DNA of 64,000 nt, from NCBI GenBank assembly GCA_965215535.1, contig OZ244063.1, forward strand, positions 2,440,649 through 2,504,648, written 5' to 3'. The notes under the pieces are model-generated. The model ran no database searches, was not told where the DNA came from, and saw nothing but the letters and a program-made list of their open reading frames with translations. This document shows, one piece after another, positions 31,282 through 43,465 of the stretch (its first letter is position 1; each line of letters starts with the position of its first letter). The stretch is from Longimicrobiales bacterium. GTDB taxonomy: Bacteria; Gemmatimonadota; Gemmatimonadetes; Longimicrobiales; Gaopeijiaceae. Position numbers and translations under genes: made by a program.

Positions 31282-32208
31282 ATGGCCTCCTCCCTCTACC
31301 CCGATCGCCCCTGGGGTGCGTTCCCCGCCACCGGCCCGGCACGATTCTGGCTCGCTATCGCGCGGTCTCTTCCGGGGGGCTGGCCCTGGAACCGCTTTGC
31401 GCTCCTGGCCCGGCGCTTCGCGCGGCGGCGCCTCGACGGCCCGGTCGATGTGCGCCTCTGGGGTCTTGCGCTTCGTCTCTTCCCGCACCGTTCGGTCTCC
31501 GAGTCGCGCATTCTCTTTCTGCCGCGCTCCTGGGACCGGGCCGAGAGACGCTGGCTCGGTCGCTCCCTTCACCCCGCCTTCACCTTTGTCGATGTGGGCG
31601 CAAATGTCGGCGCCTATTCCTTCTGGGTTCTCGCCCAGAGCGGTCCCGCCAGTCGTATTGTGGCGGTCGAGCCCAACCCCGATCTCGCGTGCCAGTTGCA
31701 CTTCAATATTGCCGCCAATGCCGCCCACACCCGCATGACCGTTGTGGAAGCCGCCGTGAGCGAGCGCAGCGGAAGTGGCCGCCTCACCATCAGCGAGCCG
31801 AACTCGGGCGAAAATCGCCTTCTTCGCCCGGATGCCGACCCGGATGCCGGCATCGCCGTTGCGGTTCTCTCTCTTGCCGAGGTGGTCGCCGCCGCCGGTC
31901 TGGAGCGCATCGACTGCCTCAAGGTCGATGTCGAGGGGCACGAAGCGCAGGTTCTGCGTCCCTTCCTGACCACCGCCCCGGCTTCGCTCTGGCCGCGCCT
32001 CCTTGTGGTGGAGATGAAGCCATCGGAATCCGATCCCCCCGGCTTTCCCGGAGCGCTGGCGCTCTGGCTCACGCGCCGCGGTTACCGCCTGGAGCTGCGC
32101 ACAAAGCTGAATGGACTCTTCCGCCTGGATTCGCCCCGGCCCGCCCTGTCCCGGGCCTCCGGTCTCGATGGACAGACGGGCTCTGGCCGCGCCGAGGCGG
32201 ACGGCTGA
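31282..32208 (+). CDS. FkbM-family SAM-dependent methyltransferase
   Basis: The FVDVGANVGAYSFWV glycine-rich SAM loop, VAVEPNPDL and LKVDVEGHE motifs are present. Confidence 0.75.
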   Translation: MASSLYPDRPWGAFPATGPARFWLAIARSLPGGWPWNRFALLARRFARRRLDGPVDVRLWGLALRLFPHRSVSESRILFLPRSWDRAERRWLGRSLHPAFTFVDVGANVGAYSFWVLAQSGPASRIVAVEPNPDLACQLHFNIAANAAHTRMTVVEAAVSERSGSGRLTISEPNSGENRLLRPDADPDAGIAVAVLSLAEVVAAAGLERIDCLKVDVEGHEAQVLRPFLTTAPASLWPRLLVVEMKPSESDPPGFPGALALWLTRRGYRLELRTKLNGLFRLDSPRPALSRASGLDGQTGSGRAEADG

Positions 32209-32217
32209 CGGCCAGCA

Positions 32218-32349
32218 TCAGGGCAGGAGATCGCGTATGTAGAACACCTCAATCCGGCGGCTGTGAACCCGTCCGCTCCGCCGCGCGACGACATCCAGGG
32301 CGTCTCTCCTCTCGGTCGCGGAGAGACGCTGGAAGTTGGTTTCAGCCAT
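32218..32349 (-). pseudogene. N-terminal 43-codon remnant of an AbiEii-type nucleotidyltransferase toxin
   Basis: MAETNFQRLSATERRDALDVVARRSGRVHSRRIEVFYIRDLLP* resembles the 'LSxxERRDALxxAAxxSGRP...EKDxWV' N-terminus I recall for AbiEii/AbiGii toxins. It stops after 43 codons. Confidence 0.4.
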
Positions 32350-32380
32350 GCGCGAGTCGCCTGCCCAGCGGTTCCGCTAT

Positions 32381-32887
32381 TCACGCAGGCATTGCGGCCT
32401 GAGCGGCGACGAGGTCGCTCAAATCTTCACCGGTGAGCTGTGGAATCACGGCATCAAGGCTCTTCTCAACCTCGTTGGGACCGAGCCACGCCAGCGCCCG
32501 GATGACGACGCCGGCGGTCTGATGCGGTGCCGACGGAGCGCCAAGAGTCCGAATCACGGCAGGAAATCATCTAACTTATTACAGGGCTGCACGATCTGCG
32601 TTTCCTGCCATTGGACTGAATCGTCCTGGATCGTACCGAGATAGCGGTAAAAACGGATCTGAATGGCGGGAGTTCTTGTAGGTCATTCCGGCCTCTGCCG
32701 ACCGACGAAGCAGCGCCTGCATCCAAGTCTCCGGTGGCATGTTGTGAGTGTGAAGAGCTTCCGCCGCAGAAGCGCGGTGGATGAGACAGGGAGGCGAGTG
32801 GGCGGACGGAAAGCATGCGGGTTCGATGGGTGAGGGGGTGGGGGATTTGGGGCGCTGATAGCTCGTCACGAGGTCGCGACGGTCCAT
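32381..32887 (-). pseudogene. Frameshifted remnant of an AbiEi/DUF6088-type antitoxin
   Basis: The C-terminal piece (32381-32557) reads VIRTLGAPSAPHQTAGVVIRALAWLGPNEVEKSLDAVIPQLTGEDLSDLVAAQAAMPA. An upstream piece in another frame reads ...YQRPK...NMPPETWMQALLRRSAEAG.... The remnant lies directly upstream of the toxin remnant. Confidence 0.35.
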
Positions 32888-32904
32888 TTTGCCTCAGGGC
32901 AACC

Positions 32905-33474
32905 TCATTCGTCTGCACCTGACCCAACAGGCCCTGATGTCGCCACACTATCACGAAGGCGTGTAGTGGATCGGCTGTTGCTATAGATATCCGCTAGCTT
33001 TTCTAGCGCTATCATCTGCCTAACATCGGCGGAGTGTCGCGACATCAGCAGTTCTTTCATCGACTCCGTTTCTATCAGCGAGGTGGCCTTGGCTTGTCGT
33101 ATGCCTCCACGTCGCTTTCGCCATCTAGCAGTGATCGCCGTAACCGGCATTCTCGGGGTGTCTCCCACACCCCACCAGCAGACATGGCGACGCTGACCCG
33201 GAGGAAGGTATGGCACATCTACCAGCTCCACTTTTGCTCCCTTTATCGGGTCGAGAGCCCGGATAGGTCGGTCAGATTCGAAACGGATATCGAACGCGGG
33301 TCATTCCCCCACATTCTCGATGAAGAGATGAGGCACCTTGTCGTCCAGTTCTACGTATGCAATAACGTCTGGCCTGCTTGCCGTCCGAACCAGCGTGACA
33401 ACAAGCGCAATGGTGCTTATGACGATTGGGATGCCCCACTGAATCCACTCAACCAACTCGCTGGTCTCGTTCAT
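32905..33474 (-). pseudogene. Single-TM small protein ORF interrupted by an in-frame TGA at 33301-33303
   Basis: The ATG at 33474 follows AGAAGGAAG. MNETSELVEWIQWGIPIVISTIALVVTLV contains the TM segment. The reading is ...HLFIENVGE[TGA]PAFDIRFESD...; the two track ORFs (33301..33672 and 32905..33231) are in the same frame. Confidence 0.45.
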
Positions 33475-33729
33475 GTTGTCTTTCTTCCTTCTGGCAAAAT
33501 GTGTCACAAATGATGAAGCCGGTATGAGCGGATATCGAAGGAGCTTTCCTCGATGTCCTGACCAGGCAGGATGACGGGCTTGCTTACTAGCGCGTGAGCC
33601 AAGTACAAGATCGTCATGCGCCGAATCGTTGCCCATGCCCGTGTCCGTGCCCGCCGCTGCACAATCCGTCATTTCTGACGTTGGCGGCTTGTCTGAATTG
33701 AATACGCTGAAAACACAGGGGAACCCGTG

Positions 33730-34983
33730 TTATTTGGCGGAAGTATCATCGAGCTCGTTCGCCGGGCTGCGCATGGTTTGACGGCTGCCGTCCTCTCGTA
33801 GGATCTCGATGCGATTACCCAACATGAAATTGACGGTTTGAGGAGTACCATGCACCGCCACTACGACTGTCAATGGCCAGTCGACGAGCTTTTCCCCTAG
33901 TGAGTTCTGGCGTCGTTCGATGCGTGCATGTACCGTCCAGCCAAGCGCGTGGAGCTCTTCCAGGGTCTGCGTGAGCGCATTCGCAACCTTTGCTCTCTGA
34001 AGTGGACCGATCTCACCCCAGATTTCCGACCACTCGAACATTTCCTGTTGGAATCCACCAACGAGGTCCACAGCCTCCCCGCGCAGTGCATCGTTGAAGA
34101 AGAAGAAACCGTAAGTGCCTAGCAGTGTCGTTAGCTCTTCGCCCGTCGTGACGCGAGGAACACGGGTTCTGTGGGCGTACTCTGTTAGCTCCTGTTCGCG
34201 GTTGACCGCAGTCCGAAGACGATCTGGAGCGATGACCTTCAACAGCCCTGCCGCGACAAGCTCAACGCCATCTTGCCACTTCAGAGCGACACGATCCGCG
34301 AGCCGCGGCGAGTGGCGGCGAACACCTTCGGCGTCAATGTCATGCCAAACGGGCAGGATGAGGTCTTGCCCGTCTAATTCACGCTGGGCTAGCCCGTCAA
34401 GCTCTGACTCCGGGTAGTCTTTTTCGAAAAAACTCTCGGAGAGTATGACCACGCCGAATCTGCACCGAGCCAAGCCCTCATCAATCCTTCTACGGAGGCG
34501 ATCCCCGACCCGCAACTCTATTTCGTCGTACCAGACTCGAAGTCCAAAAGCGCAAAGGATCGTAGCCAACGGTCGAGCGACTGATTCACGATCTTCAGAC
34601 GCGTACGATACGAAGACATCCCATTCCTGTCGCTTCGTGTTGGCGAATTGGAGCAGATGCTTTTTCGCCATTTTCCAAGTCAGCAACCGCCCGTCCGCAT
34701 GACTGGATTCCTTGGCCCGCTCACGCCAGTTCTCGGGAGCCGTGCGGAGCGCTTCGGCGATCCGATGACCCTCAGGTGTGAGACGGATCGCCTTCCAGTC
34801 GTCTCCGGTTTGATCCGTACCCCAGTTCTTGGCTTCCACCAGTCCGTCTCTGCGCAGGAAGTCAACGTAGTAGCTTCGGAGTTGATCATCTTCGATGCCC
34901 AGGTCGATACCACGCCAATCGGGAAGGGCATCCTCAAGTGTGAATAGGATCTGCTGGATCAGCTCAATCTTGAGTGCTGGCAT
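33730..34983 (-). CDS. TIR-domain protein with N-terminal DUF2513-like winged-helix region and an unassigned C-terminal domain
   Basis: The TIR core spans about residues 121-250 (WDVFVSYASEDRE, RFGVVILSESFFEKDYPESELDG, LILPVWHDID). The N-terminus IELIQQILFTLED...YYVDFLRRDGLVEA...IRLTPEGHRIAEAL resembles DUF2513. The ATG lies 11 nt after the res stop. Confidence 0.8.
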   Translation of the reverse strand: MPALKIELIQQILFTLEDALPDWRGIDLGIEDDQLRSYYVDFLRRDGLVEAKNWGTDQTGDDWKAIRLTPEGHRIAEALRTAPENWRERAKESSHADGRLLTWKMAKKHLLQFANTKRQEWDVFVSYASEDRESVARPLATILCAFGLRVWYDEIELRVGDRLRRRIDEGLARCRFGVVILSESFFEKDYPESELDGLAQRELDGQDLILPVWHDIDAEGVRRHSPRLADRVALKWQDGVELVAAGLLKVIAPDRLRTAVNREQELTEYAHRTRVPRVTTGEELTTLLGTYGFFFFNDALRGEAVDLVGGFQQEMFEWSEIWGEIGPLQRAKVANALTQTLEELHALGWTVHARIERRQNSLGEKLVDWPLTVVVAVHGTPQTVNFMLGNRIEILREDGSRQTMRSPANELDDTSAK

Positions 34984-34994
34984 AGTGGTTGCTT

Positions 34995-37571
34995 TTAAGC
35001 ACCTTCCCTAAACAGCATCCCATTCAGCCGCGCCTGCCACTCGTTTTCGTCCACGATCTCGAAGCGCATCACCTTGCTCTGCATCGCGGGCACGAGCTCG
35101 GCCCAATCGGCCTTGCGGGCGTGCTCGCCGCAGATGTCGAAGACGGATCGCTTGTATTCGGTGTCCTCTGAGTCCTTCAGGTGAACGCCCTTGGTTTCGA
35201 CCACGAAGACCCGATGGAAACCGTCGTCCGCCTCGTGCTCTCCATCCCGTAGAGTCACGATGAAGTCGGCGTAGATCCGGCGCGGCTTCCACCCCTGCAC
35301 GTAGTAGTCCTTGCGGGAGCGGTTGCGGTACCAGAAGAAGAGCCGCGCCTGCTGGTCCAAGTAGGTCGCGACCTTGTTCTCGAACTGGTTGAGATCGTCT
35401 TCCGTGGTGATGTCGAACAGGTTGCGCTGGTAGTCGCTACCGTCTTCCCGATTGGCCTGCTTCGCCTTCGGAACCTCAATCTTCTCGGGGAGGCGATTGA
35501 ACTTGAGATCGTCCGCGACGACCAGAAAACGCATTTTCCCAGACTCCAAGAGAGCGCGAAAGACCTCTCGCGACAAGCGGTCGCGTTCTCTTTCGATCCG
35601 TCGCCGCAACTCTTCGAGGACAAATACGTGATTGGCTGCCACCCGCTCCGCCGGATAACGTTTGAGGAGGGCCTCGAAGGTCCGCCGAGCCAGATCGCGC
35701 CCCTGCCACGGGTTGGGAACCAGGTCCAGCAGATGGCTGGCCGCGAAGAAGTAGTCCACCGGGTCGCCGTCGTTGCCCGAGGCATCGCTTGGAATCTCCG
35801 CTGCTCTCGGATCGCCAGGGCTCGCGGCCTCCGGCCTCGAAACAGCCGCGTCGCCAGCGACGTTGGTTACCAGTACGGTGTCTCCGTCACCCCTCTCGCC
35901 CAAAATCAGATCATCCAGGGCCGACAAATCGATGTCGTTCCATCGCACCCGTGAGAGGATATCCGCCTCGTAATGCACGAGACGCCACCCATCCAGATCC
36001 CGGATCATGAAGGCGGGCAAGACGAGATCCCGCGCCGCCTTGCGATACCGCGCCCGTTGCCGTGTTGTGAGCTTCTCCGGCGGTCGGAAGGGACCGTCGT
36101 CGGAGATTACTCGCCCCTCAAGGCCCTGCAACCCCTCCAGTCCGAACCCCCTCCTAACCTCCTGCAGCAACTCGTTCCCGCGACGACTGAAGCAGAACAC
36201 GTAGCTCTCGTCCAGCAGAGCCACCCCCGTTTTGCTCGCGTAGGGTTGCCGGAGGATCCGACCGACTAGCTGGGTGATCCCGGTCCTCGACATCGGGTTG
36301 GCGAGGATCGTCAGGATGTAGGCGAATGGGCAATCCCAGCCCTCTTGGAGCGCCTGCTTGGTGATGATGAAGCGGATCGGACAGTCGCGGGACAGCAGCC
36401 CGCCAACATCGTCCACCTCCTTCAGTTCGTCCTTTGAACTGGTCTTGACCGCGATGTGTTCCGGCGCGATTCCCGGGTGTTGGAGCAGGTACTCGCGCAC
36501 GTCGTCGGTGTGGACATACCCCGGTTTCCTCTGCTCCTTGCCGGTTCGCTCCACCTGGATCACGCAGATGGGCCGAATGTAGGTGCCGGACTCGGCTTCG
36601 TGAAGTCGCGCCTCGACCTCAAGCGCTTCACGGTGTTCGATCGACTCCAGTAGCGTGCCGCGCCAGTCGCCGCCCGCCTTGTTCAAAATGTGAAGGTCGA
36701 GCTTGATCATCTCCTCGACGTTGAGTTCCTGGCCCAGAACCTCCACGAGCACGTTCGCGCCCTGAGCTGGGGTGGCCGAAAGCTCGACGATCATGCAGGG
36801 GTTGAATCCCTCTAGCGTCTCCTTCGCGTTGGCGCTGTACGCCTTGTGTCCCTCGTCGAGAATGATGAGTGGCTGCAACCGCCGCACCGTGTTCCCAAGG
36901 GATGTCTTGATGTAGCGGCCCCAGAAGCCCGCCGTTTGCTCGAAGGTGTCGAGGTTCGGGATCTCCGCCAGCATCTTGGCGTGCGCGGTCGGATCGTCGT
37001 CCGGGGGGAAGAACCGATCGAAGCCTCCGCTGTCGCGGAACAACCGGAGCGTGTCTTTCGTCTTCCGGTTGGCGGACGGGAGCATGAGCAGAAGAACGCA
37101 GAGGTTCTCGGCGACATCGCGCGGGCCAAACGCCGTGGTCTTCTCGAAGATGCGCGTGCGCTGGCCGGACGACAGGTCGAGTTGCTGGCGGTAGGGGTGG
37201 TCGCGGTCCTTGAGCGCCTTGAGCATCTGGTTGTAAATCTGCGTCGTGGGCACGATCCAAAGCACCAGCCCACGCCGACTCTGCCGGAAGTGGGCGTTCA
37301 CGAGATCGATCACCCTGGTTGCGAGCAGCGTCTTGCCGCCCCCGGTCGGAATCTTGAGGCAGAAGGCCGGAAGGTGCTCACCCAGCCCGTTCCGGCGGGG
37401 GTTGTAGCGTCGTCCGACCGCAGTGCGATCCCACGCTCGCTGCACCCAATCCGAACCCCAGTTCGGGTTGTGTTTCCGCGCCTCTGCGTCCTCGGCCCGC
37501 CACTTCGCCAACTCCGCAACGAAGCCGCGGACCGTCGCAACCGTACGCTTCTGGTATTCCTTTAGGATCAT
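34995..37571 (-). CDS. res: Type III restriction enzyme Res subunit (SF2 helicase plus C-terminal PD-(D/E)xK nuclease)
   Basis: The helicase motifs are IPTGGGKT (motif I) and ILDEGHK (motif II). The C-terminal nuclease-like segment is YADFIV...VFVVETKG. Its ATG overlaps the mod stop (ATGA, 37568-37571). Confidence 0.85.
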   Translation of the reverse strand: MILKEYQKRTVATVRGFVAELAKWRAEDAEARKHNPNWGSDWVQRAWDRTAVGRRYNPRRNGLGEHLPAFCLKIPTGGGKTLLATRVIDLVNAHFRQSRRGLVLWIVPTTQIYNQMLKALKDRDHPYRQQLDLSSGQRTRIFEKTTAFGPRDVAENLCVLLLMLPSANRKTKDTLRLFRDSGGFDRFFPPDDDPTAHAKMLAEIPNLDTFEQTAGFWGRYIKTSLGNTVRRLQPLIILDEGHKAYSANAKETLEGFNPCMIVELSATPAQGANVLVEVLGQELNVEEMIKLDLHILNKAGGDWRGTLLESIEHREALEVEARLHEAESGTYIRPICVIQVERTGKEQRKPGYVHTDDVREYLLQHPGIAPEHIAVKTSSKDELKEVDDVGGLLSRDCPIRFIITKQALQEGWDCPFAYILTILANPMSRTGITQLVGRILRQPYASKTGVALLDESYVFCFSRRGNELLQEVRRGFGLEGLQGLEGRVISDDGPFRPPEKLTTRQRARYRKAARDLVLPAFMIRDLDGWRLVHYEADILSRVRWNDIDLSALDDLILGERGDGDTVLVTNVAGDAAVSRPEAASPGDPRAAEIPSDASGNDGDPVDYFFAASHLLDLVPNPWQGRDLARRTFEALLKRYPAERVAANHVFVLEELRRRIERERDRLSREVFRALLESGKMRFLVVADDLKFNRLPEKIEVPKAKQANREDGSDYQRNLFDITTEDDLNQFENKVATYLDQQARLFFWYRNRSRKDYYVQGWKPRRIYADFIVTLRDGEHEADDGFHRVFVVETKGVHLKDSEDTEYKRSVFDICGEHARKADWAELVPAMQSKVMRFEIVDENEWQARLNGMLFREGA

Positions 37572-39205
37572 CGTTCCAGCCTGTCGATCGCTTCGTAGAT
37601 CTGGAAGGGCAACTGTTGGAAATCGATCCGGTACTGGTGAAGGAAATCGCGATCCAGGTATTTGGTGGGCGCGAAGACGAGCCTCCTTCGCGATCCCCCT
37701 TTCGGCAGAGAGCGCGCCTCGGCCAGCGAGAACGCGAGATTCTTGAGCGTCTCGACATCCGGCTGGTAGAACAGGAAGACATCGTGGGACGCGGTGCGCC
37801 CGACGAACCCGGTGTCCGGGTTGGTCTCGGCGGGGTCGAACTCCTGCCCGGTCGCGGTGAAGAAGATGTATCCCGCGAGCTTCTCCCAAGAAGGCAGGTG
37901 GGAGCCGTCGAGGAGCGACTCCTGTTGCATGGGACGGCCCAGTTCGAAGTAACTGAACGTGCCCCCGAGGCCAGCCTTGAGGGCGTCATCCTTTGCGCCC
38001 GGAACCCCTTGAATGACCCGCCGGATGCGCTCGGCAGTGATGGTATCGGCGTAGTCCTCACACTCGACGAGGATGAAGCGTCGGTTGCCACCGTCCTCCT
38101 GATTCTGCGCGAGGACGGCGTGGGCCGTCGTGCCGGAGCCCGCGAAGGAATCGAGGACAATGGAGTCGGGGTCGGTTGCGATCTGGAGTATGCGACGGAC
38201 GAGGCGTGAGGGCTTCGGGGTGTCGAATGGCGCCCTGCCATCGTGCAAAACCTTCAATTCGAGCGTTGCCTCCTTGTTGTGGCCCGCAAACGAATAATCC
38301 CACCAAGTGTTCGGCGTGAGTCCTTCTTGGGCCTCGGACAGGAATCGTTTCAGCATTGGACGGCCCCTACCGCTCTTGCCGAAGGTGATCCGCCCATCCG
38401 CCAACCACTTTCGGTATTGGTCTTCGTTCATCCGCCAGTACCTGTTGGGAGGAGGCTTGAATTTCTGGCCATGTGGGCCGGTGATCACGAAGAGGCCTGC
38501 CTTGTACGGTTTGCTCGCCGAAAGATCCTGCGCTCGCCATCTGCCTCGCGGATCGTCGTCTGGATTCCGGTAGGGGGCTTCCTGCTCGGTGCTACGGGGA
38601 ATTTTGTGTACCTTGAAGTTCCTGACATCGCGGGCGTAGCAGATGATGTGGTCGTGCATGTCAGAAATGAACCCGGAGGTCACGTTCGAGACGTATCGCT
38701 TCTGCCAGACGACATTCGCCAGAAAGTTCTCCTCCCCGAACACCTCGTCCATCAGAGACCGCAGATGGTGCACCTCGTTGTCGTCGATGGACACGAAGAT
38801 CGCCCCGTCCTCTCGGAGCAGTTCGCGCAGAAGCTTCAGGCGCGGAAGCATCATGCAGCACCACTTGTCGTGGCGGGTCAGGTCGTCCCGGTCTACCACG
38901 CGCCCCAGCCAGTCCCGCATGAGGGGCGAGTTCACGTTGTCGTTGTAGGCCCAGCCTTCGTTGCCCGTGTTGTAGGGCGGGTCGATGTAGACGCACTTCA
39001 CCTTGCCGTAGTAGGTCGGCAGCAGGGCCTTCAGCGCGGCCAGGTTGTCGCCGTGGACGATCAGGTTGTCGCGCAGGCTCGCCTTCTCGCTCAGTCCTTT
39101 GTCACGGATCGGCAGCAGTTCGTGGAAGGGAACGGCGAGGTGGTGGTTCTCGACGAAGACCTTTCCCTTGAAATGGAGCCGTGGCAAGGAGCCCTCCTGT
39201 GGCAC
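37568..39205 (-). CDS. mod: Type III R-M Mod subunit (beta-class N6-adenine/N4-cytosine DNA methyltransferase)
   Basis: DPPYNTG (motif IV) precedes DSFAGSGTT (motif I). The size is 545 aa, and the gene sits directly upstream of res and is coupled to it. Confidence 0.9.
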   Translation of the reverse strand: MPQEGSLPRLHFKGKVFVENHHLAVPFHELLPIRDKGLSEKASLRDNLIVHGDNLAALKALLPTYYGKVKCVYIDPPYNTGNEGWAYNDNVNSPLMRDWLGRVVDRDDLTRHDKWCCMMLPRLKLLRELLREDGAIFVSIDDNEVHHLRSLMDEVFGEENFLANVVWQKRYVSNVTSGFISDMHDHIICYARDVRNFKVHKIPRSTEQEAPYRNPDDDPRGRWRAQDLSASKPYKAGLFVITGPHGQKFKPPPNRYWRMNEDQYRKWLADGRITFGKSGRGRPMLKRFLSEAQEGLTPNTWWDYSFAGHNKEATLELKVLHDGRAPFDTPKPSRLVRRILQIATDPDSIVLDSFAGSGTTAHAVLAQNQEDGGNRRFILVECEDYADTITAERIRRVIQGVPGAKDDALKAGLGGTFSYFELGRPMQQESLLDGSHLPSWEKLAGYIFFTATGQEFDPAETNPDTGFVGRTASHDVFLFYQPDVETLKNLAFSLAEARSLPKGGSRRRLVFAPTKYLDRDFLHQYRIDFQQLPFQIYEAIDRLER

Positions 39206-39455
39206 GTCTTGGATGTCCTGAGCGCGCCGCCCGCTGGAACCGGACGGATTTTCTTCCCTCCCAAGCTAACTCCTATGCCACGGTCGAGCAGGCCATCAGG
39301 GCATCTTGCGCGGCTACGAGTGGGGCGACGAAGGCCGCTGGCGGAGGGATATCCGGGTCCAGAATCCATATCGGAACGATTGGAAAATCATTTGAGTTTA
39401 TGCCGTTGACACGCCCCAATCGAGCCTCTCCCGCGCTTGGTGGTCACAGCGGCTC

Positions 39456-40733
39456 TTGCCGGATCCACTGGGGTGGTTCATCCCACGCGTGAGCAAGTGG
39501 AGACAGTCGCCGATGCGTGCGGCGAGCCGACCCGATTTCGGGGGGAACCCATCGGCATCCATGTGCGCAGACACGAGCTCTGGACGTGTACGCCCAATGA
39601 CGGCGCAGGCCGCTGGCGCGCCTGCCGTTACGCCACGACGGAACCTGCGGCCGTGGCCGGAGCGACTCTCCTCCTGGGACGCTTGGTGTGCCACGGGGAA
39701 GGGTTGGGATGTGCAAGTCATCCCAGGGAGGATCGGCCCGAGCGGACGGCCCGTGGCGAACCGAACAATCGAGTACGACCTGAAGTTCCTGGTCGCGGTG
39801 TTGAACTGGGCGGCGAAGTCGCGCGATGAAGGGGGTCGGTTGTTGCTCGACCGGAATCCGCTCAGAGAGCTCAAGACGCCGAGCGAGAAGAATCCGGTCC
39901 GGGTGGTGCTCGCCGAAGAGGAATACCGAGCGCTCTTGGAGGTGTCGCGCCGGGTGGACTGGCGATTCCAGGTCGCGCTTGTGCTCGCGCACGAGACGGG
40001 TCATCGGATCGGCGCCATCCGCCAGCTTCGGTGGTCGGACATCGACTTCGAGGGCGGAACCATCGTTTGGCGAGCCGAGCACGACAAGTCCGGCTACGAG
40101 CACATCACGCCGGCTACCGCCGAGGCGCTCGCCGCTCTGGAGGAGGCGCGAATGCGAAGCTCCGGTGTCGGAAATGTGCCACTGCTCCCGGCGCCCCGGA
40201 GTCCGTCGGCTTGCATGGGAGCCGCATTGGCGCAAAGATTGTGGGACAGAGCCGAACGGCTTGCGGGACTGGAGCCGAAGCGCGGCAGGGGCTGGCACTC
40301 GCTCAGGCGGAAGTTCGCCAGCGATCTGATGGATCAACCGCTGAAGGTGCTCTGCCAACTCGGCGGCTGGAAAACGGCGGCCAGAGCGCCGAAAGAGACG
40401 CCAGCGCCTTTTCAAGTGCGGAGCCCGGAGATCGAATCTGGTCTGGATCGGACACATGTAGATGCTCTGCAGATTCGCAGGAGCCGATCCGAGCGAGCGA
40501 GGCGGGACAGGGCCCGGGCCACTGCGGCGCAGTCGTCGAGGTGCAGCAAATCGTTCGCCCGTATCGGGGTGGCCTCCGGCGTGGTCTCGGCGTACTCAAA
40601 AGATCCGCTTGGGTCGACTGTTCATCGCGTCACCTTGACCTCATGGACCTGCGCCCAAGGGTCTGAACCTGACTCAATCCAATCGGCGGGAATCAAAGCG
40701 CGGGAATTCGAAGCGCCGAATCGCATAAGCTGA
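39456..40733 (+). mobile_element. Tyrosine recombinase (phage-type integrase), probably inactivated
   Basis: Box I (ETGHRIGAIRQLRWSDIDF) and box II (GWHSLRRKFASDL ... LGGWKT) are present. No Tyr follows box II; a Phe (TPAPFQVRSPE) sits where I would expect the nucleophile. The C-terminal tail is abnormally long and Arg/Ser-rich, and the N-terminal region looks atypical or truncated. Confidence 0.6.
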
Positions 40734-40879: not shown

Positions 40880-41926
40880 ATGATCGATCTGCGTTCCGAT
40901 ACCGTCACCCGTCCGACCCCTGCAATGCGCGAGGCAATGGCCCGCGCAGAGGTGGGCGACGACGTCTATGGCGACGACCCCACGATCAGGAAGCTGGAGG
41001 CGCGCGCGGCCGAGCTTCTGGGCAAGGAAGACGCGGTGTATATGCCCACCGGCACCATGACCAACCAGGTGGCGATCCGGGCGCACACCGAGCCGGGCGA
41101 TTGCGTCGTCATGGATATCGGTTCGCATGTCGTGCGCTCCGAGGGCGGCGGACCGGCTGCGCTCTCGGGCGTCACCGTCCATCCGCTGGCGGGCGAACGC
41201 GGCATCTTTACCACCGCCCAACTGCAGGACGCGCTGGGCGTTGCGCATCCGGGGTCGCCCACCACCCTGGCCCCGCCTCCCCGTCTGCTCTGCCTCGAGA
41301 ATACGCACAATGGCGGCGGCGGCAGCATCTGGCCGCTGGAACAGCTCGACGCAGTGGCGGCCATGGCTCGCGCTGCCGGCCTGCGCTGCCACCTCGATGG
41401 CGCCCGCATCTGGAACGCCGCCGCCGCCACCGGAATCCCGCCCGCCCGCTACGCCCGCGCCTTCGACAGCGTCTCGGTCTGCTTTTCCAAGGGCCTGGGC
41501 GCTCCGGTGGGATCGGCGCTGGCGGGTTCGCGCAGCTTTACGGCCCGGGCGCGGCGCTTCAAGCAGCTCTTCGGAGGCGGCTTCCGCCAGGGCGGCGTGA
41601 TCGCGGCGGGGGCGCTCTTCGCTCTTGAACATCACCGGGCCGCGCTCGCCCACGACCACGAAAAGGCAGCCTGCCTGGCCGATCTCCTGGTCCGCATTCC
41701 CGCGGTGGCGCTGGTGCGCGAGCATGTCGAGACCAATATCCTGCGCTTCGACGTCGATATCGCCGGGGGCGCGCCGCGCTTTGTGGATGCGTGCCGCGAG
41801 GGGGGCGTCGCCATCCTGGTGGCCGGCGCCAGAAGCGTGCGGGCGGTGACGCACCGCGACCTCTCGATGGACGATATTCACCGTGCCGGCGAGGTCATGC
41901 GCGCAGCTCTCGCCGTCGTTGCCTGA
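40880..41926 (+). CDS. ltaE: Low-specificity L-threonine aldolase
   Basis: The canonical LtaE N-terminus is MIDLRSDTVTRPTPAMREAM...GDDVYGDDPT...YMPTGTMTNQ. The Lys motif is present in CFSKGLGAPVGS. Confidence 0.9.
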   Translation: MIDLRSDTVTRPTPAMREAMARAEVGDDVYGDDPTIRKLEARAAELLGKEDAVYMPTGTMTNQVAIRAHTEPGDCVVMDIGSHVVRSEGGGPAALSGVTVHPLAGERGIFTTAQLQDALGVAHPGSPTTLAPPPRLLCLENTHNGGGGSIWPLEQLDAVAAMARAAGLRCHLDGARIWNAAAATGIPPARYARAFDSVSVCFSKGLGAPVGSALAGSRSFTARARRFKQLFGGGFRQGGVIAAGALFALEHHRAALAHDHEKAACLADLLVRIPAVALVREHVETNILRFDVDIAGGAPRFVDACREGGVAILVAGARSVRAVTHRDLSMDDIHRAGEVMRAALAVVA

Positions 41927-42358: not shown

Positions 42359-43465
42359 ATGCCCGATCCCGCCCTCGCCCTCCTCCTCTTTCTGGCGCTT
42401 GCCGCCCTGTCCGCCCTCGTCCTCTGGCCCGGCCGCGGCATCGGCGCGCGACTCCGCCGCATTGCCCGGCTCACCGAACGGGTGCGCATGGAAGACGCCC
42501 TCAAGCAGATCTACAAGCTGGACTACGACCGGCGGCCCGCCACGGCCGAGAGTGTGGCCGGCGCCCTGCAGCTCTCCCGCGCGCAGGCGATCCGGCTCCT
42601 GCAGCGGCTCGAAGAGAGCGAGCTCGTCACCGCAGCCGACGACCGCTTCGCCCTCACCGACGCGGGCCGCACCCAGGCGCTGCACATCGTGCGCACGCAC
42701 CGCCTCTGGGAGCGCTTCCTCGCCGACCGCACCGGAACGCCGCCCGAGGAGTGGCACCGCAGCGCCGAAGCCCACGAGCACCGCCTCTCGGTGGCCCAGC
42801 GCGAGGATCTGGCAGCCTCCCTGGGGCACCCGGTTTACGACCCTCACGGCGACCCGATTCCAACCGCAGAGGGCGAGATGCCGTCGCGCTCGGGCATTCC
42901 GCTGACCGCACTGGCCCCGGGCGAACGCGGACGGGTCACGCACCTGGAGGACGAACCGCGCGAGATCTTTCGCGAACTGGTCGGTCTCGAGATCGAGCTC
43001 ATGACCCCCGTCGAGCGGCTCAGGGTCGAGCCGGAGGAGGGCGCATCGGGGCGTGTGGCCTTCCTCGCCGGATCCCGCCGTCACGAGGTGCCAAGCGCAG
43101 TCGCGCGCAACATTACGGTCGAGCCTCTGGAGCGGGTGGAGCCGGCGCCCGCAGCAACGGGATCGCGCACCCTGGCCGATCTCGAACCGGGTCAGAGCGG
43201 ACGGGTGGCCGGCATTGCGCCCCGGGTTCGCGGACCCGCCCGTCGCCGCCTCCTGGATCTGGGCGTGGTGCCGGGAACGGTTGTGCAGGCGCGCATGCGC
43301 AGCGCAGGGGGCGATCCGGTCGCCTACGACATTCGCGGGGCGCTGATTGCGCTCAGGCGTGCGCAGGCGGTGCAGATTCAACTGGCCGACGAGTCGCCGG
43401 CCGAGATCGAAGCCGCCACCACCGAGGCCGAGGCAGCCAGGGCAAAGGGGCAGAGAGCATCGTGA
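42359..43465 (+). CDS. Membrane-anchored DtxR-family metalloregulator fused to two FeoA/SH3-like domains
   Basis: The N-terminal hydrophobic helix is ALALLLFLALAALSALVLW. The DtxR core carries VRTHRLWERFL, AEAHEHRLS and HPVYDPHGDPIP. Two FeoA-like modules follow (LAPGERGRVTHLED... and LEPGQSGRVAGI...VVPGTVV). Confidence 0.75.
   Translation: MPDPALALLLFLALAALSALVLWPGRGIGARLRRIARLTERVRMEDALKQIYKLDYDRRPATAESVAGALQLSRAQAIRLLQRLEESELVTAADDRFALTDAGRTQALHIVRTHRLWERFLADRTGTPPEEWHRSAEAHEHRLSVAQREDLAASLGHPVYDPHGDPIPTAEGEMPSRSGIPLTALAPGERGRVTHLEDEPREIFRELVGLEIELMTPVERLRVEPEEGASGRVAFLAGSRRHEVPSAVARNITVEPLERVEPAPAATGSRTLADLEPGQSGRVAGIAPRVRGPARRRLLDLGVVPGTVVQARMRSAGGDPVAYDIRGALIALRRAQAVQIQLADESPAEIEAATTEAEAARAKGQRAS

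Follow-up and report, generated by a model that had tools for sequence, protein, structure and literature searches.

A Type III restriction-modification system and a TIR-domain gene in a Longimicrobiales genomic island are likely two stacked defense modules

A 64,000-nt stretch of contig OZ244063.1 from a Longimicrobiales bacterium (hereafter the window, by which we mean the whole stretch) carries three intact, uninterrupted open reading frames (ORFs) on the minus strand within positions 33730-39205. Two of them, mod and res, encode the methyltransferase and the restriction subunit of a Type III restriction-modification (R-M) system, and the third encodes a TIR-domain protein. The original prediction, made from the nucleotide sequence, took these genes for a coupled trio or for an R-M-derived sensor that feeds a TIR effector. 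Comparison with related loci leads us to favor, with moderate confidence, a different reading, namely that two independently mobile defense modules are stacked in a variable cargo slot and that the locus does not hold a new three-gene system. The proposed coupling did not hold up, since the TIR gene occurs without a Type III R-M system and near-identical res genes are followed by other cargo. The contrast in GC content at third codon positions (GC3), a break of homology near the res stop codon and the origin of the 11-nt gap between res and the TIR gene as a local deletion speak against it as well.

Results

The three minus-strand ORFs, their sizes, the overlap of mod with res and the short gap before the TIR gene were all found as originally described. 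mod (37568-39205, minus strand) encodes 545 aa from a GTG start, and its TGA stop overlaps the ATG of res (ATGA, 37568-37571; junction sequence GAACGATGATCC). res (34995-37571, minus strand) encodes 858 aa counted from this ATG; its frame is open further upstream, to a TTG at 37889, and its homologues are only 857-870 aa long. The res stop (TAA, 34995-34997) is followed by 11 nt (AAGCAACCACT; 34984-34994, minus strand) and then by the ATG, at 34983, of the TIR gene (33730-34983, minus strand; 417 aa). No terminator-like and no sigma-70-like site was found in this gap, and the TIR gene is probably co-transcribed with mod-res in this genome by read-through from res, in keeping with what had been proposed. 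A conserved leader 5' of the module (39206-39314, minus strand) is the probable promoter region; here, 88-89% nucleotide identity to the related loci L103-L107 (L-numbers denote the related loci that we retrieved) extends to 39314 and ends at that position.

What follows res differs widely between close relatives. We compared eight distinct res loci, all in one cluster at 90% protein identity and with pairwise res DNA identities of 82-92%, and found six different states directly 3' of res; the window res is 82-89% identical at the nucleotide level to the others. The TIR gene follows res in the window, L001 and L002, at gaps of 11, 122 and 126 nt, respectively. L103-L106 instead carry, after 224 nt, a gene for a 193-aa protein and one for a 954-aa Dsr1-like protein (PADLOC, 3e-46). 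Avs2 (PADLOC, 3.7e-261) stands 15 nt after res in L107, a protein with HD-CE and HATPase_c_3 domains (Pfam, 2.7e-46) is encoded 71 nt after res in L108, and a 200-aa protein follows after 2 nt in L114/L115. The sixth state, in L116, lacks a co-oriented gene and shows just a convergent AAA protein.

These exchanges have sharp borders. Nucleotide homology (88%) of the window to loci that carry other cargo covers res and most of mod, is interrupted solely in the target-recognition domain (TRD) region of mod, and ends at 35002-35010, which is 5-13 nt short of the res stop. L103 (8575-12288) and L107 (6169-10499) share their flanks, with mod-res on the left and, on the right, two convergent genes whose products are 81-87% identical and match no family, and these flanks enclose unrelated cassettes, the Dsr1-like pair in one and Avs2 in the other. 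Genes for MobC/NikA-like proteins and relaxases lie 5' of mod in L103, L104, L107, L114 and L115, where the window has an integrase instead. Conserved flanks, alternative defense genes, nearby mobility genes and lower GC are thus found together, as in the cargo hotspots of defense islands and mobile genetic elements (MGEs). Avs2 is an established autonomous system, and its position 15 nt after res means that tight spacing in this slot need not signal coupling. Among more distant res homologues (36-45% identity; on plasmids and IMG/VR contigs, including L109-111), none had a TIR neighbor, and no TIR gene was found within 6 kb of the L110 res.

The TIR gene is likewise found apart from mod-res. 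About 20 contexts were sampled, mostly on metagenome contigs. The relatives of the TIR protein comprise about 20 full-length proteins (62-84% identity) and many shorter proteins of ~285 aa, in which a TIR domain is combined with the C-terminal domain described below; none were found in IMG/VR. The linkage is conserved in part: the mod-res-TIR order recurs on two other contigs, L001 and L002, and a remnant of it is present in L101/L102. Elsewhere relatives of the TIR gene lie beside unrelated genes, which the original prediction had itself named as grounds for rejecting its idea. A full-length relative in L003, a Longimicrobiales metagenome-assembled genome, has no Mod or Res within 10 kb, and that of L098 is near a Type I hsdR gene and insertion sequence (IS) elements. 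In L099 its neighbors, within an integrative and conjugative element, are MobC, TrbL, VirB8 and an integrase, and in L100 it belongs to a defense island with a second TIR, a reverse transcriptase, a BsaWI-type R-M system and SIR2. The gene in L101/L102 adjoins a PemK toxin-antitoxin pair and IS elements and is itself IS-disrupted. The short form is encoded in ten of the loci that we retrieved, and tblastn detected no homologue of a Type III Res in any of them; only two of these, L004 and L005, have a distant, 26%-identical Mod-like methyltransferase, ~6 kb away. Linkage of the TIR gene to an R-M locus of this kind, seen here in roughly one third of cases, is therefore not obligate, as L003, L098, L099, L100 and the ten short-form loci attest.

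The junctions themselves retain part of their history. Alignment of the res-TIR junctions revealed that L001, L002 and L101 have in common a spacer of ~125 nt, which separates the res stop from the TIR start codon. L101 has no res gene, yet the last ~30 nt of res are kept, and such a res remnant lies 5' of the TIR gene in L101/L102. The shared spacer and this remnant imply that the window, L001, L002 and L101/L102 descend from one res-spacer-TIR junction, and that L101/L102 later lost mod-res. Given the ~125-nt spacer in L001, L002 and L101, the 11-nt gap of the window is what a secondary deletion has left of it. The R-M-less loci L003, L098, L099 and L100 share just ~35 nt 5' of the TIR ATG and have no res remnant. 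The long spacer of the relatives holds no consensus promoter or terminator; a structured RNA was also considered there and rejected, as RNAalifold returned a long hairpin whose single-sequence z was about 0.

Composition and sequence similarity also set the two parts of the operon-like array apart. GC3 is 0.806 in mod and 0.807 in res and falls to 0.617 for the TIR gene; the GC of the remaining cargos is likewise below that of res. The window res is 88.3-88.7% identical to the res genes of TIR-less L103/L107/L108, versus 82.0% and 84.5% to those of TIR-linked L001 and L002. The window TIR gene is closest to that of L101 (85.6%), and the L001 TIR gene is 84-85% identical to its counterparts in the R-M-less loci L098/L099, versus 80.2% to the window gene. 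Because the res and TIR similarities are incongruent, the two modules do not follow one common tree. The GC3 contrast and the homology break near the res stop mark them, on this comparative evidence, as two modules with separate histories.

An arrangement similar to that of PrrC could nevertheless be envisaged, in which the TIR protein is held latent by association with Mod/Res and released to deplete NAD+ when a phage anti-restriction factor inhibits the enzyme or when restriction cannot cope; on this view, the position behind res would generally house second-line effectors of various kinds. PrrC and the Type Ic R-M system EcoprrI provide the precedent (PMC1484252, PMC3458546): there, too, an R-M system and a suicide-type effector are transcribed as a unit (PMC1484252; review PMC12707154), and layered immunity at the window locus is for this reason conceivable. 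The hypothesis of immunity-suicide coupling also notes toxin-like genes in Type I and Type III R-M loci (PMC3506569). The operon-like position of the TIR gene 11 nt after res fits such a model, as do the linkage kept in L001 and L002, the res remnant in L101, and the fact that five of the six alternative cargos are co-oriented with res, at gaps of 2-224 nt. PrrC, however, is an ABC-ATPase/HEPN RNase that is reported to be physically masked by its Type Ic enzyme, whereas the window encodes a predicted TIR NADase beside a Type III system, and prrC has been described as always R-M-linked (PMC3458546), whereas the linkage of the TIR gene is facultative and its family is free of Type III R-M in L003, L098, L099, L100 and the ten short-form loci. 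Avs2, an occupant of the same slot, works alone, the compositional and phylogenetic incongruence of the modules argues against co-adaptation, and the close res-TIR spacing is a secondary deletion. We consider a guardian role of the TIR protein unlikely. The same holds for the broader idea that the position 3' of res is a dedicated backup-effector slot, whose occupants (the TIR NADase, Avs2, the Dsr1-like protein, the HD-CE/MORC-like ATPase and the 200-aa protein) are read through from mod-res and fire when restriction fails or is inhibited. This idea, too, appears improbable to us; if true, it would extend the principle known from PrrC and EcoprrI to Type III R-M and to effectors that deplete NAD.

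Profile searches against Pfam and PADLOC, together with the conserved motifs, bore out the predicted identities of Mod, Res and the TIR protein. Mod matches Pfam N6_N4_Mtase (9e-36) and the PADLOC model MTase_III (1e-166, profile positions 1-540 of 542), and the order of its parts, DPPY (motif IV, aa 75-78), TRD and FAGSG (motif I, aa 354-358), is that of the beta class. Res matches Pfam ResIII (1e-14; also ResIII/DEAD) and PADLOC REase_III (7e-169 over aa 54-847). Its helicase motifs (GGGKT, DEGH, SAT and QxxGRxxR, here QLVGRILR) and its C-terminal PD-(D/E)xK nuclease motif (D...ETK, in YADF...VVETKG) are intact, and the cluster that contains Res at 90% protein identity has 64 members. mod lies directly upstream of res in every related locus compared. 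With the Mod motif order and TRD, a Res that has both helicase and nuclease, and the mod-res operon order all present, mod-res itself is, as far as sequence can tell, an ordinary and complete Type III R-M system. Its variable target-recognition region (38177-38698, minus strand) interrupts homology to otherwise 88%-identical loci; in blastn against L001 and L103-L107, the alignment breaks between 38176 and 38699/38922. The replacement of this region relative to such similar loci implies a different methylation and restriction specificity. The classical Type III systems EcoP15I and EcoP1I have the same overlapping mod-res operon, a beta-class N6-adenine methyltransferase with a TRD, and a Res that joins a superfamily 2 (SF2) motor to a nuclease; the sole oddity here is the third co-oriented gene 11 nt downstream, which is swappable cargo. 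Separately, mod was called at only ~220 aa beside an intact res in L108 (2394-3059) and L116 (5342-6004), which could be due to a frameshift, to faulty assembly or to decay of the R-M system.

This ordinary make-up bears on the proposal of an integrated three-component system, in which Mod/Res would be a derived DNA sensor whose translocase signals unmodified DNA to the TIR effector. Adjacency and probable co-transcription are all that speaks for it. The Res nuclease, the helicase and the Mod motifs are all intact, and so bear no mark of a degenerate sensor, and the mod TRD has been swapped as in ordinary Type III systems. The same mod-res (82-89% at the nucleotide level) carries other downstream genes or none, and the TIR gene exists without mod-res. 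We regard a system of this type as highly improbable.

The TIR protein consists of three parts: an N-terminal winged helix-turn-helix (wHTH) region resembling DUF2513, the TIR domain and a C-terminal domain (AlphaFold2 model from 74 sequences; mean predicted local distance difference test score, pLDDT, 81). The N-terminal region (aa 5-92; 34708-34971, minus strand) matches PF10711 at 1.2e-5, below the gathering score; it is missing from the short relatives of ~285 aa, and PF10711 is found on most full-length relatives. The TIR domain (aa 119-250; 34234-34629, minus strand) matches Pfam TIR_2 at 8.5e-18 (aa 123-236). It is 43-49% identical to the solved domains of AbTir, TcpB/BtpA, PdTIR and BtTir, with a Foldseek E value of about 1e-13 (2e-13 at a TM score of 0.88), TM scores of 0.8-0.9 and a phmmer E value of 1.5e-36 against the PDB. 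Besides the fold, the window protein conserves the catalytic glutamate of this group, the SxASED motif and the VGD motif of the BB loop. Differences are seen in the architecture, since proteins of the AbTir group have an N-terminal coiled coil followed by TIR in about 270 aa, whereas the window protein has wHTH, TIR and a C-terminal domain of 150 aa, and W204 of AbTir is a tyrosine (Y190) here. The predicted catalytic glutamate, E194 (codon at 34402-34404, minus strand), which had been singled out in the original prediction, is invariant across 74 family members and aligns with the AbTir glutamate in '...WTNYELDGL'. This AbTir residue, E208, is essential for NADase activity, the E208A variant being inactive, and self-association is required (bioRxiv 10.1101/2022.05.07.491051). 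The window protein is most likely an NAD-cleaving enzyme that acts through E194.

Given that single-protein TIR systems protect E. coli alone and in an active-site-dependent manner (PMC11350192), that Avs2 occupies the same slot and that R-M-free TIR loci exist, autonomy of the TIR gene is the default assumption, and we most likely have before us a single-protein defense candidate. The E. coli systems TIR-II, -V, -VI and -IX (PMC11350192) are also single genes in defense islands that need the active-site glutamate for defense; their accessory domains, and those of PDC-S66, differ from those of the window protein. PDC-S66 is the best PADLOC match of the window protein (4e-52), in the TIR part only (aa 109-235).

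Alternatively, the protein might be a signal generator as in Thoeris, producing a cyclic ADP-ribose (cADPR) isomer as messenger for an effector encoded elsewhere in the genome. The PADLOC ThsB models match it at 1e-29, and its closest solved relatives, AbTir and TcpB, make 2'cADPR (bioRxiv 10.1101/2022.05.07.491051). Its scores against the NCBIfam Thoeris and retron-TIR models are, on the other hand, far below the cut-offs (23.9 bits versus 220 for ThcB4 type III). Thoeris pairs ThsB with an adjacent, signal-activated gene of the ThsA type; no partner gene is conserved beside the family of TIR plus C-terminal-domain proteins in 18 loci, whether of the ThsA type (SLOG, SIR2, Macro or transmembrane) or another, and none is evident in the island. 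The absence of a conserved neighbor across these loci argues against a two-gene system similar to Thoeris, and we think a messenger role very unlikely. The preprint that described the discovery of Thoeris had discarded standalone TIRs.

It could also be that the TIR gene has no anti-phage role in its host and is a silent hitch-hiker, an addiction or toxin element, or the source of an activity such as decapping of NAD-RNA. The island is partly decayed, the gene has lost its own upstream spacer, and the homologue in L101/L102 is IS-disrupted; TIR proteins of this clade are reported to decap NAD-RNA as well (PMC10937652). Set against this, the reading frame is uninterrupted and keeps every residue that is invariant in the family, and the family recurs in defense islands and MGE cargo beside reverse transcriptase, SIR2, R-M, toxin-antitoxin and AbiV-like genes. 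A role outside anti-phage defense seems to us quite unlikely.

The C-terminal domain (about aa 275-405; 33769-34161, minus strand) is composed of a helical hairpin and a beta-sheet. Modeled alone with AlphaFold2, it reached a pLDDT of 91 and a predicted template modeling score of 0.83, and Foldseek returned no match with E<=1e-3 in the PDB or BFVD. An HMMER scan of 1.8 billion representative proteins yielded 95 proteins with this domain, and in the sampled proteins it stands behind TIR, DUF4062, HNH_2 or HTH_3 heads. DUF4062 is a TIR-like NADase family. As the C-terminal domain has been recombined with other effector heads (DUF4062, HNH), the wHTH and the C-terminal domain may be the parts that sense the trigger or mediate assembly; the C-terminal domain in particular is probably a module for sensing or assembly to which different effector heads can be joined.

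Regarding the surroundings, GC of the island is below that of its flanks. At its mod-proximal end lies a tyrosine-recombinase ORF (39456-40733, plus strand; Pfam Phage_integrase 8e-14, aa 151-307), whose catalytic domain lacks the last ~14 model positions (profile positions 2-158 of 172). The TIR-distal end holds the C-terminal remnant of an integrase gene (32516-32641, plus strand; tblastn, 41% identity to residues 177-220 of the product of a 239-aa gene in L001). A core of 65 nt (32550-32614) within it is common to L001 (12879-12943) and L108 (9951-10014) by blastn, and possibly marks a common island end. About 1.5 kb of low GC (0.578; 32209-33729) contain no recognizable gene, the ORFs there being without Pfam or PADLOC match. 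The claim that the surrounding island genes are decayed is thus only partly true: it applies to the integrase pieces at 39456-40733 and 32516-32641 and to the gene-less 32209-33729. Direct repeats of the att type around the island were looked for and rejected, as only short matches at chance level appeared. Neither a tRNA gene nor a match to Rfam was detected.

The flanks encode an FkbM methyltransferase (31282-32208), a threonine aldolase (40880-41926) and a FeoA/iron-repressor protein (42359-43465). Each has a copy of at least 90% identity on a 41,722-nt contig of another sample, presumably the same contig for all three, and the TIR protein cluster has a single member; these two observations together suggest that the island is lacking in a close relative. 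Further along, 45815-50179 (minus strand) is a single ORF of 1454 aa that is rich in leucine-rich repeats and whose C-terminal part weakly resembles Peptidase_M66. The stretch that it occupies has 56% GC amid 64-70% and constitutes a second apparently foreign segment.

Two sets of neighbors in the related loci may be of independent interest. After the TIR gene, L001 (11359-12651, minus strand) and L002 (2164-3450, minus strand) carry a convergent gene for ~430 aa with HEPN_AbiV-like and DUF3775-like regions. Fragments of this gene are present in L101/L102, and tblastn with the 430-aa L001 protein found no trace of it 3' of the window TIR gene. In L100 (6286-8702, minus strand), a 202-aa ORF stands ahead of the gene for a 575-aa reverse transcriptase, convergent to the TIR relative. 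This ORF is 53% identical (77% at the nucleotide level) to the C-terminal nuclease domain of the window Res, and the two genes may form a pair similar to the defense-associated reverse transcriptases that has borrowed a Res nuclease domain.

Discussion

We propose that an integrative island, acquired horizontally and by now partly decayed, spans the region of ~32.4-40.75 kb and that two self-sufficient defense modules lie end to end in it. Within the first, Mod would methylate one strand of an asymmetric site, and Mod2Res would cut DNA with unmethylated sites by means of the SF2 ATPase and the PD-ExK nuclease of Res. The second module would be the single-protein TIR gene, the present occupant of the variable cargo slot directly 3' of res. 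An infection cue might be sensed through the wHTH region, the C-terminal domain or both, upon which activated TIR domains could self-associate and cleave NAD+ through E194. Such cleavage would be expected to exhaust NAD+ and to end in abortive infection, and a cADPR isomer might arise as a by-product or signal. Deletion of the ~125-nt spacer would have left the TIR gene to be transcribed, probably, by read-through from mod-res. Co-expression with mod-res would then be an accident of history and would not in itself speak for mechanistic coupling, and the two modules would provide layered defense only in the generic sense in which defense islands do.

Several observations weigh against the idea of separate modules. 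The res-TIR junction has been kept through about 18-20% nucleotide divergence between the window, L001 and L002, and judging from these alignments the linkage is old within the clade formed by the window, L001, L002, L101 and L102. The TIR gene is IS-disrupted in the single lineage that lost mod-res (L101/L102). Of the six downstream states, five have the orientation of res, and in three the gap to the res stop is 15 nt or less, a possible hint of selection for co-expression in a sample too small for significance. The sampling of contexts, about 20 and drawn mostly from metagenome contigs, counts on this side too. Finally, the PDC-S66 match spans profile positions 137-263 of 282 and so falls short of the full length of that model.

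How far the locus departs from what has been described can be gauged from the literature. P2/P4 hotspots likewise have conserved flanks around a slot for alternative defense systems (bioRxiv 10.1101/2021.01.21.427644); here, res itself serves as the left anchor, and the junctions lie no more than a few codons from its stop. Toxin-like neighbors (HEPN, Sir2, AIPR) of Type III R-M systems were described in the 2012 survey of Makarova et al. (PMC3506569), which does not mention a TIR occupant. Our literature search returned no report of an R-M plus TIR system or of a TIR occupant. The general idea of R-M loci with suicide-type genes is already on record (PMC3506569, PMC1484252).

The locus would be one more defense island, with a normal Type III R-M system beside a single-gene TIR defense candidate. 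Operon-like spacing in such islands can arise by deletion and cassette exchange, and should not be read as functional coupling. The wHTH-TIR-C-domain and TIR-C-domain proteins constitute a small, uncharacterized TIR family, and their C-terminal domain is a candidate for a new phage-sensing or assembly module. Moreover, the set of res genes at 82-92% nucleotide identity with six cargo states offers a natural experiment on whether R-M systems and abortive-infection effectors merely travel together or cooperate.

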